Assembly: GCA_013152295.1 (NCBI GenBank)
Contig: JAADGQ010000131.1
Span: forward strand, 6,219-70,218
Length of the DNA: 64,000 nt
From: Gammaproteobacteria bacterium
GTDB lineage: Bacteria > Pseudomonadota > Gammaproteobacteria > JAADGQ01
Direction: 5' to 3'
Shown: positions 990 to 63,329 of the stretch, in pieces
Numbering within the stretch: the first letter of the stretch is position 1
How the letters are laid out: each line of letters begins with the position of its first letter
The notes under the pieces: generated by a model
Told to the model about the DNA's origin: nothing
The model's input: only the letters and a program-made list of their open reading frames with translations
Databases searched by the model: none
Made by a program: the position numbers and the translations under genes

Positions 990-1448
990 ATGGACCACGA
1001 TCAATACGAAGTTGTCTTTCGCGGCGTGATTACGGAGGGCAAAAACGTCGAGGAGGTCAAGCTTGGCATCGCGCGACTCTTTAAAGTCGACGCCGCCAAA
1101 GTGAGCCACCTCTTTTCCGGCCAACACTACACAATTAAAAGAGGTATCGACAAACAGACCGCGCTTAAATACAAAGCAGCCATGCTCAACGCGGGCGCCT
1201 TGTGCTACATCAAACAAGAGGTTCGACAAGAGGCGCCGCCGCTCGCAGAACGCCCCGCCGCTGCCATGACCCTTGCCGAAGTGGGCGCCATGCTGCTCCC
1301 GCCCAAACAGACACCACCGCTCAAAGTTAACCTGAGCGGCATGAGTATGGCAATGCCGGGCACGATGATCAGCGAACCAAGCATCACGCCCAAAGCCGAC
1401 ATCGACACCAGCACTTTCACGCTCGTCGATCGCGAGCAAGAGCAATAA
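990..1448 (+). CDS. hypothetical protein (152 aa from internal ATG with SD AGGTGGAG)
   Basis: Longest ORF begins at 897, but the ATG at 990 has a strong RBS. N-terminal ~70 aa resemble a small alpha/beta domain; the rest is Pro/Met-rich low complexity. No recognisable family. Confidence 0.45.
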   Translation: MDHDQYEVVFRGVITEGKNVEEVKLGIARLFKVDAAKVSHLFSGQHYTIKRGIDKQTALKYKAAMLNAGALCYIKQEVRQEAPPLAERPAAAMTLAEVGAMLLPPKQTPPLKVNLSGMSMAMPGTMISEPSITPKADIDTSTFTLVDREQEQ

Positions 1449-1532
1449 GAGCGCTATCCGCCAAGCCTATAAAAATAAACCCCGCTTATTTAACCTTACT
1501 TTCCAGGTGCGATATTAACCATTTATTTTATG

Positions 1533-1561
1533 TGGACAATACCCATATCCAATGCTATATT
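1533..1561 (+). promoter_or_regulatory. sigma-70 type promoter (-35 TGGACA, 17-nt spacer, -10 TATATT) with AT-rich UP-like tract upstream
   Basis: TGGACA at 1533-1538; TATATT at 1556-1561; exactly 17 nt between. No CDS start follows within 250 nt on this strand. Confidence 0.45.
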
Positions 1562-1567
1562 GGCGTC

Positions 1568-1806
1568 CAACCGTAACTTCAGATACGGGATAAAGGTATT
1601 ACGACAACGCGCTAAAACGCCTCGGGCAGCCGCCGTTCGCAAGCCCCCTCCTAGCAGAGGACGGCGCCTGGGTTCAACCGCCTACCCCCCGGCGAAAGTG
1701 AGCCACCCTCCCGACGGAGCGCGCGTCGAATACCGTTAGTTAGTACGGAAGATCCCTCTCTCCGACACTTACCGGAACGCGCCCCCCGCGTCTCCGGTTT
1801 TTTTTT
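1568..1806 (+). ncRNA. candidate ~240-nt small RNA (unclassified) bracketed by promoter and intrinsic terminator
   Basis: Near-consensus promoter at 1533-1561 and GC hairpin plus T9 terminator at 1772-1806. GC-rich interior with many short complementary segments. Only an Arg/Pro-rich 69-aa ORF (1530-1739) that starts upstream of the predicted TSS. Confidence 0.3.
1772..1806 (+). terminator. rho-independent terminator (9-bp GC stem with 1-nt bulge, followed by nine T)
   Basis: ccggaacgcg-cccccc-gcgtctccgg followed by ttttttttt. Confidence 0.6.
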
Positions 1807-1843: not shown

Positions 1844-4066
1844 TCATTCACCACGCCGCCAGCCGTGAAAACGCTTAACCCACTCCAGCAAACCTTGAGG
1901 AGCATGTGCCCGCTTCCATTCACCCGCAACATATTTATTCGCCTCTGCCAGAGTGGGATAGATATGAATGGTGCCAAGAACCTTGTTCAAACCGATTTTA
2001 TGGCGCATCGCCATAACATATTCGGCAATCAGGTCACCGGCGTGTTCACCGGCAATCGTCACACCAAGAATTCGATCTTTACCCGGCACCGTCAGCACCT
2101 TGACCAAACCATGCGCCTCCTCGTCAGCGATGGCGCGATCCAGATCATCAATGCCGAAAGTCGTCACCTCATAAGCAATATTCTGCTCTTTGGCTTCACG
2201 CTCATTGAGTCCAACCCGCGCAACTTCGGGATCAGTAAAAGTCGCCCACGGAATGACTGAGTAATCCGCCTTAAACATTTTAAAACCACTGAACAGCGCA
2301 TTCACCGACGCATACCAAGCCTGATGAGCAGCCACATGGGTAAACTGATAGGGGCCAGCCACATCACCGCAAGCATAAATATTGGGGAAGTTACTCTGCA
2401 GGTATTCATTCACCTCCACCGTACCGCGATCACTCAATGCGACACCTAACGCCTCAAGACCAAAGCCGCGCGTGTTAGCAGCACGACCCACTGCCACCAA
2501 GACCTGATCAAACTCAATGCGCACCATCTCACCTTGATGCTCGCAGAGCAGTATCTTTTTGCCATCCTCCAACAAAAACTCTTTCGCCGTATGCTCGACA
2601 CGCACATCGACGCCTTCGGCGACAAAGCGCTCCATCACCATCTGTGAAATTTCAGGATCTTCGCGACTCATTAGCGTTGAGCCACGCTCAACTTGAATAA
2701 CCTGACTGCCGAGACGGGCAAAGCACTGAGTTAGCTCACTGCCAATCGGGCCACCACCCAACACCAGCAGGCGTTGAGGCTGTTCACGCAAATCCCAGAT
2801 CGTATCTGAAGTCAAATAATCGACCCGATCAATCCCCGGAATTGGCGGCACAAAAGGGCGTGCTCCGGTGGCCACCACAATATTGCGCGTCGTCAGCGTC
2901 TGGCCATTCACTTCAACCGTATAGGGGGACGTAATTTTTGCCTCACCCTCGATCACTTCCACACCTAGTTCGGTATAACGCTCCACTGAATCGTGCGGCT
3001 CAATGGTCTTAATCACTCGCTGCACTCGCTCCATCACATCGGAAAAATCAAACGCCGCCTCTGCCGAGCGAATACCAAACTCTTTCGCTCGACTGACATG
3101 GGCGAGAAACTTGGCTGAACGAATTAACGCTTTAGAGGGAACACAGCCTGTATTAAGGCAATCACCACCCATTTTATGTTTTTCAATGAGTGTCACCTTT
3201 GCTTTCACAGCGGCTGCAATATACGAAGTCACCAACCCCGCCGATCCACCACCGATCACAACAATGTTGCGATCAAATTTTTCCGGTTTAGTATACGGCT
3301 TAAGCACCTTGCGCGCCTTGATCACCGCCACCGCTTTTTTTGCAATCAACGGAAACAGGCCGAGCAATACAAAGGAGAAGATCAGACCCGGAGAGAGGAT
3401 GCCGGATAAAGAATCGATCTGCGCGATCTGCGTGCCCGCGTTAATGAAAACAATGGTACCGAGCAGCATGCCAACCTGACTGACCACAAAGAAAGTAACC
3501 GTGCGAATCGGCGTCAACCCCATCACTAGGTTAATCACAAAAAACGGGATAACCGGCACTAGGCGCAATGTAAAAAGATAGAAAGCGCCATCTTTTTTAA
3601 CGCCTTCATTAACCGTTTTCAGTCTGTCACCAAAACGACCTTGAACCGAATCACGCAATAAAAAACGTGACACCAGGAAAGCAAGCGTTGCGCCCAGCGT
3701 CGAGGCAAACGAGACCAGCACCGTACCCACCAGCAGACCAAATATGGCGCCGCCCGCAAGGGTCATGATCGCCGCGCCGGGTAGAGATAATCCGGTGACC
3801 AGTACATATAGAAGAAAAAAGATTAGTGCGGCATAACCCGGATTCGCTTCGTAATAAGCATTGATCGCTTGCTGCTGCGACTTGAAGTATTCGAGGCTGA
3901 AATACTGCCCCAGATCAAATACAAAAAAAGCGCCCAGCAGCACCGCTATCGTCGCCACCAATAAGATCTTCGTTCTGTTCATTGTCACATTGCCCTTGTT
4001 AATGTAGATATTTTTTGGTTGGCAGCCTGCGGAATCGATCAAGCCCAGCGGAGGTTCGCCTGACAA
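1844..4066 (-). CDS. bifunctional DedA/TVP38 membrane domain - FAD-dependent pyridine nucleotide-disulfide oxidoreductase
   Basis: N-terminal ~230 aa are multi-TM DedA/SNARE-associated-like. C-terminal ~460 aa have the GGGSAGL FAD motif, redox-active CLNTGCVPSK disulfide and a dimerisation domain (dihydrolipoamide dehydrogenase/mercuric reductase-like). Start may be the ATG at 3982 (MNRTKILL). Confidence 0.8.
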   Translation of the reverse strand: MSGEPPLGLIDSAGCQPKNIYINKGNVTMNRTKILLVATIAVLLGAFFVFDLGQYFSLEYFKSQQQAINAYYEANPGYAALIFFLLYVLVTGLSLPGAAIMTLAGGAIFGLLVGTVLVSFASTLGATLAFLVSRFLLRDSVQGRFGDRLKTVNEGVKKDGAFYLFTLRLVPVIPFFVINLVMGLTPIRTVTFFVVSQVGMLLGTIVFINAGTQIAQIDSLSGILSPGLIFSFVLLGLFPLIAKKAVAVIKARKVLKPYTKPEKFDRNIVVIGGGSAGLVTSYIAAAVKAKVTLIEKHKMGGDCLNTGCVPSKALIRSAKFLAHVSRAKEFGIRSAEAAFDFSDVMERVQRVIKTIEPHDSVERYTELGVEVIEGEAKITSPYTVEVNGQTLTTRNIVVATGARPFVPPIPGIDRVDYLTSDTIWDLREQPQRLLVLGGGPIGSELTQCFARLGSQVIQVERGSTLMSREDPEISQMVMERFVAEGVDVRVEHTAKEFLLEDGKKILLCEHQGEMVRIEFDQVLVAVGRAANTRGFGLEALGVALSDRGTVEVNEYLQSNFPNIYACGDVAGPYQFTHVAAHQAWYASVNALFSGFKMFKADYSVIPWATFTDPEVARVGLNEREAKEQNIAYEVTTFGIDDLDRAIADEEAHGLVKVLTVPGKDRILGVTIAGEHAGDLIAEYVMAMRHKIGLNKVLGTIHIYPTLAEANKYVAGEWKRAHAPQGLLEWVKRFHGWRRGE

Positions 4067-5352: not shown

Positions 5353-5429
5353 TGGTCGGGGTGACAGGATTTGAACTTGCGACCCCTGCCTCCCGAAGGC
5401 AGTGCTCTACCAGGCTGAGCTACACCCCG
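5353..5429 (-). tRNA. tRNA-Pro (anticodon CGG)
   Basis: Reverse complement gives CGGGGTG acceptor, GCTC/GAGC D-arm, CTGCC-TTCGGGA-GGCAG anticodon arm (CGG), TTCAAAT T-loop and CACCCCG-A-CCA 3' end. One A.C mismatch in the T-stem. Confidence 0.85.
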
Positions 5430-25259: not shown

Positions 25260-26648
25260 CTAACGACTACCCTGGCGCCAGAATATGACCGGCGAAGTCT
25301 GAAAAACAATCATTAAATCGAGCAGTAAACTATAGTTTTTCACATAATACAGGTCATATTGCAGCTTTTCATAGGAGTCCTGCTCCGACGCACCATAGGG
25401 ATAACAGATCTGCGCCCAGCCCGTGATACCAGGCTTAACACGGTGGCGTTCTGCATAATAAGGGATGCTCGCAGAGAGCTGCTCAACAAATTCTGGGCGC
25501 TCGGGGCGCGGCCCGACAAAACTCATTTCACCCTTAAGTACATTGAAAATTTGCGGCAATTCATCAATACGCACTTTGCGGATAAAGTCACCAACCCGTG
25601 TAATACGGTTATCATTTTCCAGAGCCCACTGCGCACCATCCTGCGCCTCGGCATCAACACGCATACTGCGAAATTTGATCACCTGAAATAACTTCCAGTT
25701 CTGCCCCACTCGAACCTGGCGATAGAATATGGGACCGCTATCCTCAAAAAGGATGGCTAACGCCGTTAACAACATAATGGGCCAAGTCACCGCCAGCAGC
25801 AACAGAGCCGCCACGATATCAATGACTCTTTTGCTATACACACGAAAAGCACCAAAACGAAAACCATCGGAAAAAACCATCCAGCTGGGATGCATGATAT
25901 CAAGCATCACCTTACCGCGCTGACGCTCAAAGAAAGTCAACAGGTCAATAACTTCGATGCCACTCATGCGGCAGTCCAATATCTCGTGCACAGGGAAGGC
26001 CTTGCGTCGATCATCCAGCGCCTCCACAATTTCATGCGCATCATAGCGCTTGGAAATTTCCAGTAATGTGGTATCAGCATGAATAATGTTGCTGCGCTCT
26101 ACAAGCTCTTCACCACCCATTGAGACATAGCCAACGACAACGAATCCGCGGCGATCCAGCTTTCTGCGCAATCGCTCATTGATACTTTTTGCACGCGCTC
26201 CGGCACCCAGCACCAAGACGCGCCGCTGCAGTGCGTCTTGGTCAACCAGCTTGAAAAATATCGCGCGTGCAGCGACCACACAGATAAAAGCAAAAAAGAG
26301 CGCAATACCGAAAGCACCGCGCCCCAAAAACATACTGGGAAATGCGTAGAATATCAGCGACATCAAGGCGAACCCGAGCAGGAAGCCAGCGCCCAAACGC
26401 AGCAGCATTCCCGAAAACCCTTCCCGCAGCTGACGCTGGTACAGACCCATGGCGGTATTAATACTAACCATGAGCAACATAAACAGTGTTGCTTTAAAAA
26501 ATATCGGTTCGATGCCAGGCGGAAGCTCCTCTTCCCCCCAAAACCGTAGTGCAACACCCAGGTAAATGGAGACAAAAAAGAGAGCAGCTTCCACCAATCC
26601 CAAAAATACAAAATATTTCGGTATGTAGTGCCTGAATACTCGGAGCAT
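25260..26648 (-). CDS. PEP-CTERM-associated undecaprenyl-phosphate sugar phosphotransferase (EpsB/WbaP-like)
   Basis: Five TM helices, central Rossmann-like domain and C-terminal bacterial sugar transferase motif (DELPQIFNVLKGEMSFVGPRPERPEF). Confidence 0.85.
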   Translation of the reverse strand: MLRVFRHYIPKYFVFLGLVEAALFFVSIYLGVALRFWGEEELPPGIEPIFFKATLFMLLMVSINTAMGLYQRQLREGFSGMLLRLGAGFLLGFALMSLIFYAFPSMFLGRGAFGIALFFAFICVVAARAIFFKLVDQDALQRRVLVLGAGARAKSINERLRRKLDRRGFVVVGYVSMGGEELVERSNIIHADTTLLEISKRYDAHEIVEALDDRRKAFPVHEILDCRMSGIEVIDLLTFFERQRGKVMLDIMHPSWMVFSDGFRFGAFRVYSKRVIDIVAALLLLAVTWPIMLLTALAILFEDSGPIFYRQVRVGQNWKLFQVIKFRSMRVDAEAQDGAQWALENDNRITRVGDFIRKVRIDELPQIFNVLKGEMSFVGPRPERPEFVEQLSASIPYYAERHRVKPGITGWAQICYPYGASEQDSYEKLQYDLYYVKNYSLLLDLMIVFQTSPVIFWRQGSR

Positions 26649-32342: not shown

Positions 32343-33053
32343 ATTCCCACTCAAAAAACAGGTGTGCAACCGTACTTATCAGTGGCGCGAACAGAGGTAT
32401 CGGCCTCGAATTTTGCCGTCAATATACGCAGGCCGGTTGGCACGTCATTGCCTGTTGCCGGGATGTCAGTGGTGCCACACAGCTACAAAACCTCTGCCAT
32501 ACAGCAGCAGGTCAATTTGAAATTTTCCCGCTCGCTTGATCTGCTTGAGTCCAAGCAAATCAAGACGCTATCAGCCAGCTTGGCAGGTCAATCCATCGAC
32601 CTGCTGATCAACAACGCGGGCTACTATGGTCCCAAAAACGCGGCATTAGGCTGCATCGATAGTGATGAATGGATGCGGGTTCTACAAATCAACACCATCG
32701 CGCCGCTCAAGCTGGTCGAAGCACTCATACCTCAATTGGCGCTGTGCAAACACGCCACCGTTGCCATGCTCAGCAGCAAAATGGGCAGTATGGATGACAA
32801 CCATTCTGGCGGTTCTTATATCTACCGCTCATCGAAGGCGGCGCTAAATGCCATCACCAAAAGTCTGGCCATTGACCTGGGCATCAAGGCAGTGGCACTG
32901 CATCCCGGCTGGGTGAAAACAGATATGGGCGGCACCAATGCGCTGATCACGACTGAAACTGCCGTTAGCGGCCTGCGCCAAGTGATCGCGCAACTCACGC
33001 CTGAGAACAGCGGCTCATTCTTCGCCTATGATGGCACTGCCATCCCCTGGTAG
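32339..33053 (+). pseudogene. short-chain dehydrogenase/reductase (C-factor-like SDR) disrupted by a +1 frameshift
   Basis: N-terminal 66 aa (VLISGANRGIGLEF...) in frame 2 ends at TGA 32537-32539. The rest (LDLLESK...NNAGYYG...YRSSKAAL...) continues in frame 0 from ~32538. A 4-nt gctt at 32534-32537 (repeated at 32544-32547) separates the two frames. Start overlaps the truD stop by ATGA. Confidence 0.6.
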
Positions 33054-33102
33054 TCTGGTAACAGACATCTGTTACCCCCCCCCTCAAAAAAACCAAAAAA
33101 AA

Positions 33103-39832: not shown

Positions 39833-40107
39833 GCGTTTTTCCGTTTCCCGTACCTGACTTTTTTGTTTTTACTTTTTATTATAAAAGTAGCAACAGCTGA
39901 GTGGATGCGGAGCATCAAGCCTCGACTGTATAACGGCGGCTATAGTCGTTGTTTTTAGCTTCCGTTGGAAACGCCTATCTGCGTGGATGTAGCCGCATAG
40001 GCTATACCGCTAATTGTTGCCCGGTTTGTGGTCTATATGCAATGATCCTGTTGAGCTGCGTACACACGACCAAATTGAGCGGTGCAAAAAAGTGCCTTTA
40101 AGAGACC

Positions 40108-40148
40108 TTTGCACGAAAACTATTTTTCGTGCAAATTTTCGTGCAAAG
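40108..40148. promoter_or_regulatory. operator-like array: 12-4-12 palindrome TTTGCACGAAAA-ctat-TTTTCGTGCAAA followed directly by a third direct copy TTTTCGTGCAAA
   Basis: Seen directly in the divergent promoter region between the SBP-kinase operon and the orphan CheY gene. A degenerate fourth copy (GGTGCAAAAAAGTGCC) lies at 40081-40096. Confidence 0.4.
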
Positions 40149-40245
40149 ATCTCTTAAACTTATTTTGCCAAGCCGACGATAACCGGTCTGTTGCGAAGTA
40201 CGGTAGAGATCTATTCGACCGCTTAATCATGGAACCACATCTTTT

Positions 40246-40614
40246 ATGGCAACAGAGATATTGCTTATCGAGGATCACCCGGATAATCGGGATATGCTGG
40301 CACGCCGTTTAACGCGGATTGGCTACACTGTTCACACCGCTGTCAATGGCGAAGAGGGTGTTCAAGCTGTATATGATCGACCACCTGAGTTGATCCTAAT
40401 GGACGTCAGCATGCCAATCATGGATGGTATCGAAGCAACGCGCCACATCAAATCAGACCCTGACTACCAACATATTCCTATCATTGGTATCAGCGGCCAT
40501 ACTTTGAGTGAAGAGAGGGAGAGGATGTTTGCTGCCGGCGCAAATGATTACACGCACAAGCCGATCGATTTTAACAAGCTGTCAATCTGTATTAAGCAGT
40601 GGCTTAGCCACTGA
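40246..40614 (+). CDS. single-domain CheY-like response regulator
   Basis: ILLIEDHPDNRDML, phospho-acceptor in LILMDVSMP, conserved T/S and K positions; no output domain. Confidence 0.85.
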   Translation: MATEILLIEDHPDNRDMLARRLTRIGYTVHTAVNGEEGVQAVYDRPPELILMDVSMPIMDGIEATRHIKSDPDYQHIPIIGISGHTLSEERERMFAAGANDYTHKPIDFNKLSICIKQWLSH

Positions 40615-60792: not shown

Positions 60793-61013
60793 AGATAATG
60801 AGGCCTTAGTATTAGTCGTTGCGTATGTTCTCGCATATAAAAAAGTACTTTTTTCACCCTGATGGGGAAAATTAACTGCGAATATTTATGCCGCTATTCA
60901 TGCAGATCACCTGTAGGTCCGTTCAAGCTTTGGCGGAACGGGCGAGGCTTTTCTGCGTATCAACGCCTGATCCGCTGAGGCTTGATCAGGCCTACGGCGA
61001 TGTTTAACGCAGG

Positions 61014-63329
61014 TTAATCCCGTGCGGGCGGCGCTGGTGCCAGCACTTCGCGAGAACCATTGGACTGCACCGGGCCGACAACACCAGCCGCCTCCATCGC
61101 CTCGACCAGCCGCGCAGCCCGGTTATAACCGATTTTGAGCCGCCGCTGCACACCCGAGACGGAGGCACGGCGTGTTTCGGTCACAATCTGCAACGCCTCA
61201 TCGTAGAGTGGATCGCTTTCGGCATCCGAGTTGCCGCTCTTTTCACCAGGCAGCCCGATATCGACCACCTCGGCGTGCAACACCTCTTCGATGTAGTCCG
61301 GCTCACCACTCCCACGCAGATGGGCGACGACGCGGTGTACCTCTTCATCCGAGACAAAAGCACCGTGCACGCGCGTGGGCACGCTGGTGCCCGGCGGCAG
61401 ATAGAGCATGTCGCCATGGCCGAGCAGCTGCTCGGCGCCCATCTGATCAAGAATGGTGCGCGAATCGATTTTTGACGAAACCTGAAAGGCCATGCGTGTA
61501 GGGATATTGGCTTTGATCAGCCCGGTCAACACATCCACAGAGGGGCGTTGTGTAGCAAGAATCAGGTGAATGCCCGAAGCACGTGCTTTCTGCGCCAGCC
61601 GCGCGATCAGCTGTTCAACCTTTTTGCCCACTACCATCATCATGTCGGCAAGCTCATCGACAACAACCACGATAAACGGAATATGCTCCAGCATCGGCTG
61701 GTCGGCCAGGCTATCGCCGGGCTGTGGCGTAAACGTAGGGTCAGGAATCGGCGTACCGTTTTTTTCGGCCTCGCTGATTTTTTTGTTGTAACCACCGATG
61801 TTACGCACGCCAACTGAAGCCATCCAGCGGTAACGCTTCTCCATCTCGGCCACGCACCAGCGCAGCGCTGTGGCGGCATCTTTCATATCGGTGACCACCG
61901 GCGTCAACAGGTGTGGTATGCCTTCGTAGATCGACAGTTCAAGCATTTTCGGATCGATCATGATCAGCCGCACATCCCGTGCGGTGGCGTTGTAGAGCAA
62001 ACTCAGCAGCATTGCGTTAACCGCCACCGATTTGCCCGACCCGGTCGTGCCTGCGACCAGCAAGTGGGGCATCTTGATCAGGTCAACCACAACCGGCAGG
62101 CCGACGATATCTTTGCCCAGAGCCAGACTGAGTGGTGATCCGGCACAATCATAGGCTTTGGATTTGATGATTTCGCTGAGGCACACAGTTTCGCGCAGCT
62201 CATTAGGGATCTCCAGCCCGATCACCGGCTTGCCGGGGATGACCTCCACCACGCGCACGCTATTGACGGAGAGCGCGCGCGCCAGATCTTTGCTGAGGTT
62301 GGTGACCTGATTGACCTTGAGGCCCGCAGCAAGCTCCAGCTCAAAACTGGTGATGATGGGGCCGGGGTGTACCGCAACAACCCGCGCCTCAACACCGAAG
62401 TCACGCAGCTTTAGCTCTACCTGGCGCGACAGCACCTCCAGCGACTCCTTCGATGGCCCGCCGACGTGCGGCTCTTTGTTATCGAGCAGTGACAGAGGTG
62501 GCAGGGTGGTGTTTGGGTTGGTGTCGGTAAACAGCGGCAGTTGCCGCTCCTGATCGACCCGCTCACTGATCTCGATGACATTCAACGTCGGTTCAATGCG
62601 CGGTGGTGGGCGCTGCTCCACTTTTTTGACCTCTTCACGGATCGACTCCGCACGCTGCTGCTGCACCATTCTGAAACGCGCATACTCACTCAAACGACCC
62701 AATTGAATGCGCAGATAGTCGCCGAACTGAAGCGTAATGCGGCCCGTACTGTCGATCAGCCAGACCCAGGAGAGGCCGGTAAACAGTGTGATACCGGTCA
62801 GGAACAGCGCCAGTAAAAACAGCGTCGCACCAAGAAAGCTGAACAGTTTAACCAGCAGTGCGCCGAACAGATCACCGAGGATACCGCCCGACTGCAGCGG
62901 CAGATGCTGGCCAAACTCGCCGAAGTGCAGCGCAGCGATGGCGGCGCCAGTGCTGAGGGTCAACACAAACCCCGTTGCGGCGAGTACCAGCGGATAGCGG
63001 TGGATCTCTACGCCAGGCTTGCTGCTGCGACCGCGATAGAGGGTGAGCGCAGCATGGATCACCATCAACGGAAAGAGGTAAGCCATATAACCAAACAGAT
63101 AAAAAAAGAGATCGGCAAACCAGGCGCCGACGACGCCGCCGGTGTTAGTCGGTACTGTGTTACCACCATGATGAGACCAGCCCGGATCAGCGGGATCGTA
63201 GCTGGTCAGCGATATGAACAGATAGATGGCAATCGCACCAAACAGCCACAGCGCAATTTCGCGAACGCCCTTGCCCATATAAGCTGTGGTGGACGGCGTA
63301 TTCTGCTTCTTCTTTGTAGCTTGTCCCAA
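61014..63329 (-). CDS. ftsK: DNA translocase FtsK (short-linker form, 771 aa)
   Basis: Four N-terminal TM helices; motor domain with Walker A (GTTGSGKS) and Walker B; C-terminal gamma winged-helix domain ([18 protein letters not shown]). Confidence 0.9.

Follow-up and report, generated by a model that had tools for sequence, protein, structure and literature searches.

A candidate structured non-coding RNA of about 238 nt bracketed by a predicted promoter and terminator from an uncultured lineage of Gammaproteobacteria

The DNA analyzed here, referred to as the window, is a stretch of 64 kb from a MAG labelled Gammaproteobacteria bacterium. Close to its left end, ispE on the minus strand is followed by a plus strand gene for a hypothetical protein of 152 amino acids and, after a gap of 395 bp (1449-1843), by a minus strand gene for a fusion protein of 712 amino acids. 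The gap contains the signals and the predicted fold of a candidate non-coding RNA on the plus strand. The features of the locus are the following (SD, Shine-Dalgarno sequence):

13-876/903, minus strand: ispE, with GHMP kinase domains (Pfam)
990-1448, plus strand: 152-aa hypothetical gene (GXP10_08480, a hypothetical protein in the annotation of a Gammaproteobacteria MAG)
About 1509-1532, plus strand: AT-rich, UP-like tract ATATTAACCATTTATTTTATG, 5' of the -35 element
1530-1739, plus strand: Arg/Pro-rich open reading frame of 69 aa, with its start inside the -35 element and no SD
1533-1561, plus strand: sigma-70-type promoter, -35 TGGACA, 17-nt spacer, extended -10 TGcTATATT
1569-1806, plus strand: predicted transcript, non-coding and about 238 nt long, from a predicted start at A1569, 8 nt past the -10 element, to an end in the U tract
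1571-1588, plus strand: weak 5' hairpin of 5 bp with an 8-nt loop, -4 kcal/mol
1595-1734, plus strand: core domain of 140 nt with two enclosed hairpins, A and B
1631-1666, plus strand: hairpin A, with GCCCCCUCCUAG (including a C run, 1644-1648) in its open apical region
1671-1704, plus strand: hairpin B, with apical loop UACCCCCC (1683-1690) and the 13-mer AAAGTGAGCCACC on its 3' side
1743-1766, plus strand: hairpin C, whose loop UCCC (1753-1756) is part of the CU-rich stretch CCCUCUCUCC
1771-1806, plus strand: intrinsic terminator with an 11-bp stem, CCCCC loop and U9 tail
1844-3982, minus strand: 712-aa fusion gene, VTT/DedA membrane domain plus pyridine-nucleotide-disulphide oxidoreductase (Pfam)

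The candidate RNA thus has the 152-aa gene on its 5' side and converges on the fusion gene. An earlier note on this DNA had placed it downstream of ispE, which gets the orientation wrong, as ispE is encoded on the minus strand; that the next gene (1844-3982) lies on the opposite strand was stated correctly. The 152-aa protein has no match in Pfam, and its identity to the nearest relative is 35%. Its family is small, and the relatives, mostly of about 250 aa, have only the N-terminal half in common with it (33–41% identity). The fusion of a VTT/DedA domain with an oxidoreductase, here of the mercuric-reductase/Lpd-like type, is widespread, with 588 confirmed relatives in Gamma- and Betaproteobacteria, Desulfuromonadales, and Nitrospina. 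The stop codon of the 152-aa gene (1448) and the promoter are 85 nt apart, and a terminator scan detected no plus strand terminator between 1448 and 1771. Transcripts of the 152-aa gene, which lacks a terminator of its own before 1771, would therefore cross the RNA region, and this region would also be the 3'UTR of that gene.

The promoter had been described as a near-consensus sigma-70 sequence, TGGACA-17-TATATT, preceded by an AT-rich, UP-like tract, and both are present. The hexamers TGGACA (1533-1538) and TATATT (1556-1561) reach 10 of 12 consensus matches, to which an extended -10 TG at 1553-1554 is added. Sites with at least 10 matches occur three times on both strands of the window (128 kb), and the candidate promoter is the only one among them with the TG. 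The GC content is 0.425 over 1401-1600. A palindrome, CCAAT-N5-ATTGG (1549-1563), overlaps the -10 hexamer and is a possible operator, for which its 5-bp arms are weak evidence.

At the other end, about 240 nt after the promoter, the strong intrinsic terminator with nine T reported from the sequence by eye was found to consist of a GC-rich stem (1771-1781/1787-1798) with 8 of 11 bp being G-C and one bulge, followed by T9 at 1798-1806; the hairpin is predicted at -15.6 kcal/mol. It was because of the bulge that our simple terminator scan missed this hairpin. Runs of at least eight T occur three times across both strands of the window (128 kb). On the minus strand, A9 stands before the hairpin and UAAGUGUCGG after it, so that the terminator is unidirectional, which would imply real plus strand transcription ending at 1798-1806. 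By chance, a given terminator would have a promoter with 10 of 12 matches at 100–400 nt upstream, on its own strand, with a probability of about 0.007. An own promoter and an intrinsic terminator that bracket a non-coding intergenic stretch, one of the general hallmarks of a trans-acting sRNA gene, are found together here. Elsewhere in the window, a C9 run at 33075-33083 followed by A8 at 33095-33102 is situated between convergent genes ending at 33053 (plus strand) and 33179 (minus strand). This A8 is the only T run of at least eight on the minus strand, and 33075-33102 is probably, judged from its sequence, a terminator region.

The capacity of the stretch to encode a protein is small. No ATG or TTG occurs within 1566-1806, and the only start codon in these 241 nt is a GTG at 1698, which opens a 13-codon frame (1698-1739) without SD. 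None of the overlapping open reading frames, the 69-aa frame included, has a match in Pfam. A comparison of the 69-aa translation with 1.84 billion representative proteins returned a single match, to 10 stretches of a repetitive 820-aa protein, which by its sequence is compositional. The earlier note was therefore right in seeing no credible coding sequence between promoter and terminator, and in describing the sole open reading frame as Arg/Pro-rich and as beginning upstream of the predicted transcription start, since it opens inside the -35 element. That the locus encodes a small protein at 1530-1739 or 1698-1739 is barely conceivable: the two frames exist, but both lack an SD, and the longer one starts within a promoter element, has the Arg/Pro-rich composition typical of a GC-rich off-frame, and is devoid of a Pfam match and of any real homologue among the representative proteins.

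The sequence between the two signals is predicted to be highly structured. It is GC-rich (0.655 in 1601-1800), and the plus strand has a minimum free energy of -89.7 kcal/mol, corresponding to z = -3.9 (200 shuffles). In a scan of 242-nt windows taken every 400 nt on both strands (background mean z -0.35, sd 1.18), the candidate obtained z = -4.35 (30 shuffles) and rank 3 of 322, with 2 of 320 other windows as extreme, which puts it in the top 1%, whereas its minus strand fold reached a z of about -2. Nearly all helices have predicted pairing probabilities close to 1, and so does the core throughout. The core is closed by a long, interrupted helix (1595-1613 with 1716-1734), inside which 1620-1629 pairs with 1710-1714/1668-1670. 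The earlier description of the interior as GC-rich with many short self-complementary runs is confirmed.

The predicted fold exposes several C-rich loops. Three runs of at least five C fall within 145 nt (1644-1648, 1685-1690, and 1782-1787), compared with 31 on the whole 64-kb plus strand. CCC is found in four of the five hairpin loops, against 1.1 ± 0.9 in dinucleotide-preserving shuffles, of which 1 in 400 reaches four; the share of C among the unpaired bases is not above that of the shuffles. As the plus strand is C-rich across the first 6 kb of the window, with a GC skew of about -0.2, some excess of C in loops is to be expected. The 13-mer on the 3' side of hairpin B occurs exactly twice in the 64 kb, both times on the plus strand, at 1098-1110 within the coding sequence of the 152-aa protein and at 1695-1707 within the RNA, and 15 of 16 bases are identical over 1095-1110 and 1692-1707. 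Shuffles give an expectation of 0.06 for such 13-mer matches, which amounts to an event of about 1% when the post hoc choice is allowed for. The pair could, from the sequence, be due to chance, to a micro-duplication, or to a shared binding site.

No known RNA family had been recognized by eye, and the Rfam search proposed at that time agrees with this: with Rfam 15 (4227 models) at gathering thresholds, the only match in the whole window is a tRNA at 5356-5429. ARAGORN found nothing. When 501 nt around the candidate (1400-1900) were searched at E-values up to 10, three sub-threshold matches of 13.9–16.8 bits appeared, compared with gathering scores of 41–45: suhB/mmgR on the plus strand (13.9 bits, E 3.4), and COG3860 (15.1 bits) and dauA (16.8 bits) on the minus strand. 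A riboswitch or another cis-regulatory leader was rejected because the next gene (1844-3982) is on the minus strand, so that there is no plus strand gene downstream to control. It is highly improbable that the candidate is a diverged member of a known family missed by Rfam, be it a decayed riboswitch, a 6S RNA or an sRNA of the mmgR, 6C or RsaE type. The three weak matches are what could be cited for such an origin, but they remain 25–30 bits under the gathering scores, at E 0.6–5 in the 501-nt search, only the tRNA reaches gathering in the window while ARAGORN stays empty, and a diverged riboswitch would, again, lack a gene to act on.

Several described sRNAs nevertheless share single traits with the candidate. 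6C RNA (RF01066) of Actinobacteria is a stand-alone sRNA that uses C runs in its hairpin loops to pair with G-rich sequences in several mRNAs (PMC6486639). Loop runs of about six C are also present here (UACCCCCC, GCCCCCUCC, and CCCCC), but the candidate is about 238 nt long, has a 140-nt core of multiple helices, is gammaproteobacterial, and has no RF01066 match at E-values up to 10. RsaE/RoxS (RF01820) of Firmicutes, an RNA of about 100 nt with its own promoter and intrinsic terminator, masks Shine-Dalgarno regions by unpaired UCCC/CCCC motifs (PMC2790875, PMC6158497). Unpaired C-rich motifs, a promoter, and an intrinsic terminator are likewise predicted for the candidate, which is a resemblance only; it comes from another phylum, has no RF01820 match, and its loops have no preference for the translation-initiation regions of the window. 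In Alphaproteobacteria, the cuckoo or alpha-r14 family, which includes NfeR1 and CcsR, is characterized by stem-loops with anti-SD-like C/U-rich loops, the hallmark motif CCUCCUCCC, and multi-copy siblings (PMC4615179, PMC10746234). The candidate also has several stem-loops presenting C/U-rich loops, but CCUCCUCCC is absent from 1565-1806, where CCCCCUCCU and CCACCCUCCC come nearest, and the candidate is single-copy in the 64 kb. RepG of Helicobacter pylori uses a C/U-rich terminator loop as the pairing site for a G repeat (PMC8295292); the terminator loop of the candidate, CCCCC, might serve in the same manner, but the two RNAs have no sequence relation. With the mmgR/suhB family (RF00519), which gave the best sub-threshold match on the plus strand, the candidate shares a CU-rich single strand, CCCUCUCU, ahead of the terminator; the 13.9 bits of this match, compared with a gathering score of 41, cover the last 75 nt only. 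The mmgR/suhB family is alphaproteobacterial.

Homologues of the candidate were sought next to the neighboring genes of distant relatives, and none was present in 124 loci anchored on these genes. Neither blastn nor nhmmer matched 1501-1830 in 80 genome loci of the fusion gene (up to 77% identity), none of which has ispE nearby, and both programs likewise failed to match the candidate RNA in 35 metagenome loci of ispE (up to 61% identity). The contigs carrying the nearest ispE and 152-aa homologues do not contain it, and nothing similar was detected in plasmids and phages (blastn) or in viral contigs (two 20-mer scans). A covariance model built from the single sequence of the core domain (model R1, 46 bp) found only its own site in the window and gave no convincing match in the loci of the relatives; one match of 15.6 bits, in locus L112, was rejected because it lies inside a TPR/lolB coding sequence. 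This test of conservation is a weak one, since the nearest relatives are distant and do not have this gene arrangement. In a search of 5.8 billion proteins, no ispE came closer than 67% identity, which means that the lineage is poorly sampled and lacks a sequenced relative at the level of the genus.

The order of genes differs from that in relatives on both sides. These have the arrangement TPR-lolB-ispE-prs-rplY-pth-ychF, whereas the window has no lolB next to ispE; a signal-peptide gene of about 265 aa comes directly after the fusion gene in the closest relatives, and this gene is missing here. Homologues of the 152-aa gene are followed by other genes that start within 25–45 bp downstream, and they have no comparable RNA-like tail. 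Judged from these gene orders, 876-1843 is a synteny breakpoint at which ispE faces the lineage-specific 152-aa gene and the RNA, and the candidate locus can be said, on the sequences compared, to be lineage-specific at the family level and above. A pseudogene was rejected, since searches for remains of lolB, the TPR gene, prs, and the gene following the fusion gene in relatives came back empty; for lolB and the last of these genes, the interval covered was 900-1900. The 152-aa gene and the RNA, 908 bp in all, are flanked by the imperfect direct repeats TTTTGCCAAATTTTA and TTTTGCCACTTTTTA (895-909 and 1803-1817; 13 of 15 bases identical), a similarity at chance level for AT-rich 15-mers. Flanking direct or inverted repeats were rejected as marks of an insertion, because they do not exceed chance level.

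The best single reading of these data is that a gene of its own, lineage-specific and encoding a highly structured candidate non-coding RNA of about 238 nt, is located in the 395-bp gap. We advance it tentatively, on intrinsic evidence, and estimate its probability as somewhat short of even. For the small RNA running from promoter to terminator that the earlier note had proposed, this evidence is stronger than could be judged by eye, with two rare signals, a stretch almost devoid of start codons, and an exceptional plus strand fold; conservation or covariation was not found in its favor. That note had also left out of account that the terminator is shared with the upstream plus strand gene, which turns a 3'UTR into a real rival. 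The stretch might be nothing but a long, structured 3'UTR with the terminator of the 152-aa gene, in which the GC-rich fold protects the 3' end, the match to a promoter being due to chance or of minor importance. Transcripts of the 152-aa gene, with no terminator between 1448 and 1771, must indeed cross the stretch and end at the same hairpin, and the 13-mer is common to the coding sequence and the RNA. This explanation leaves it to coincidence, however, that the best promoter in 128 kb, with an extended -10 and an AT-rich spacer, is located exactly ahead of the folded body, and the homologues of the 152-aa gene, closely followed by other genes, carry no such tail. We consider it possible but rather unlikely that the stretch is a 3'UTR alone. 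A 3'UTR and an sRNA with its own promoter can, by analogy, both be true, as in MicL, an sRNA transcribed from its own promoter in a 3' region whose terminator is common to the mRNA of the upstream gene (PMC4102768). The candidate resembles MicL in having its promoter just behind the upstream gene and in sharing the terminator with the mRNA of that gene, but as its promoter lies 85 nt past the stop codon it is formally intergenic.

A synteny breakpoint could also mean that the region is inert DNA at the junction of a rearrangement or an insertion, or at a join made in assembling the MAG, in which signals and fold have arisen by chance. The missing lolB beside ispE, the gene that directly follows the fusion gene in relatives, the lack of an RNA homologue and of a close 152-aa homologue, and the weak direct repeats at 895-909 and 1803-1817 all fit such a junction. 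It is nonetheless unlikely, for several independent rare features would have to fall on one strand in the right order; moreover, the syntenic neighbor genes have left no remnant and the flanking repeats do not exceed chance level. Still less probable is a cis-antisense or convergent element, whose plus strand transcription would collide or pair with read-through from a fusion gene lacking a good terminator. Between the end of the fusion gene (1844) and the hairpin there are 38 nt, and the hairpin in its minus strand form, with A9 before and UAAGUGUCGG after it, makes a poor terminator. Yet the plus strand RNA stops before the stop codon of the fusion gene and does not overlap its coding sequence, nothing shows read-through on the minus strand, and the fold of that strand is much less exceptional, at a z of about -2.

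If the separate RNA gene is accepted as the working model, RNA polymerase would start near A1569 and stop at 1798-1806, releasing a stable RNA that would be composed of the 140-nt core, two small hairpins, and the terminator. If transcription reads through from the 152-aa gene, the mRNA of that gene would carry this RNA body in its 3'UTR. With low confidence, we propose that the RNA might act in trans by base pairing, for which the C-rich single-stranded loops CCCCCUCC, UACCCCCC, UCCC, and CCCCC could serve as seeds for G-rich stretches of target mRNAs. The proposal of pairing through C-rich loops, equally of low confidence, is made by analogy with 6C, RsaE/RoxS, cuckoo, and RepG. In enterobacterial sRNAs that depend on Hfq or ProQ, the long U tail of the intrinsic terminator is the chaperone-binding module. 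A U9 tail is present in the candidate, and a search of the 64-kb window for hfq, proQ, and csrA turned up none of these genes. Since most of the GGA motifs lie in paired regions of the fold, a role as CsrA sponge is unlikely. The C-rich loops pair no better with the 56 translation-initiation regions of the window, whose gene starts are approximate, than with controls from inside coding sequences, so that a generic anti-SD action is not supported by this window. CCUCC occurs only twice, compared with about 0.7 expected, and target prediction with the full-length RNA produced meaningless long duplexes.

The candidate, if real, would be a trans-acting or 3'-region sRNA and not a new kind of system. 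It would be a regulatory RNA specific to one uncultured lineage of Gammaproteobacteria, and it would extend pairing through C-rich loops to a scaffold that is far larger and more ornate than those of the Gram-positives, Alphaproteobacteria, and Helicobacter from which this design has mainly been described. A bolder proposal, which we regard as distinctly improbable, is that it could be the first representative to be sampled from a so far undescribed class of ornate regulatory RNAs of about 240 nt in uncultured marine or hydrothermal Gammaproteobacteria, which might either capture G-rich mRNA leaders by C-rich loops on a rigid scaffold or act as a decoy titrating a regulator that would also recognize the shared 13-mer AAAGUGAGCCACC in the neighboring mRNA. 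The capture mechanism, if true, would represent a Gram-negative counterpart of 6C/RsaE. The present worth of this orphan candidate is that of a well-documented lead and not of a discovery, and with its precisely predicted 5' and 3' ends it offers a clean test case.

The fold scan of the window also brought up other structured sites. The most extreme fold (60801-61042, plus strand, z -4.7) falls in an intergenic gap of 221 bp and includes the hairpin GCCTGATC...GATCAGGC at 60965-60991; the site has no Rfam match. The second most extreme (26401-26642, plus strand, z -4.6) is located at the 5' (start) end of a minus strand open reading frame (25260-26648), beside a gap of 183 bp. A further site, at 40097-40158, consists of a 23-bp inverted repeat (TTTAAGAGAcCTTTGCACGAAAA / TTTTCGTGCAAAGaTCTCTTAAA; 22 of 23 bases match) with a third copy of TTTTCGTGCAAA in the spacer. 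It lies in a 413-bp gap upstream of a plus strand gene starting at 40246, has a z of about -3.7 on both strands, and is probably, from its sequence and position, an operator or a divergent promoter region.
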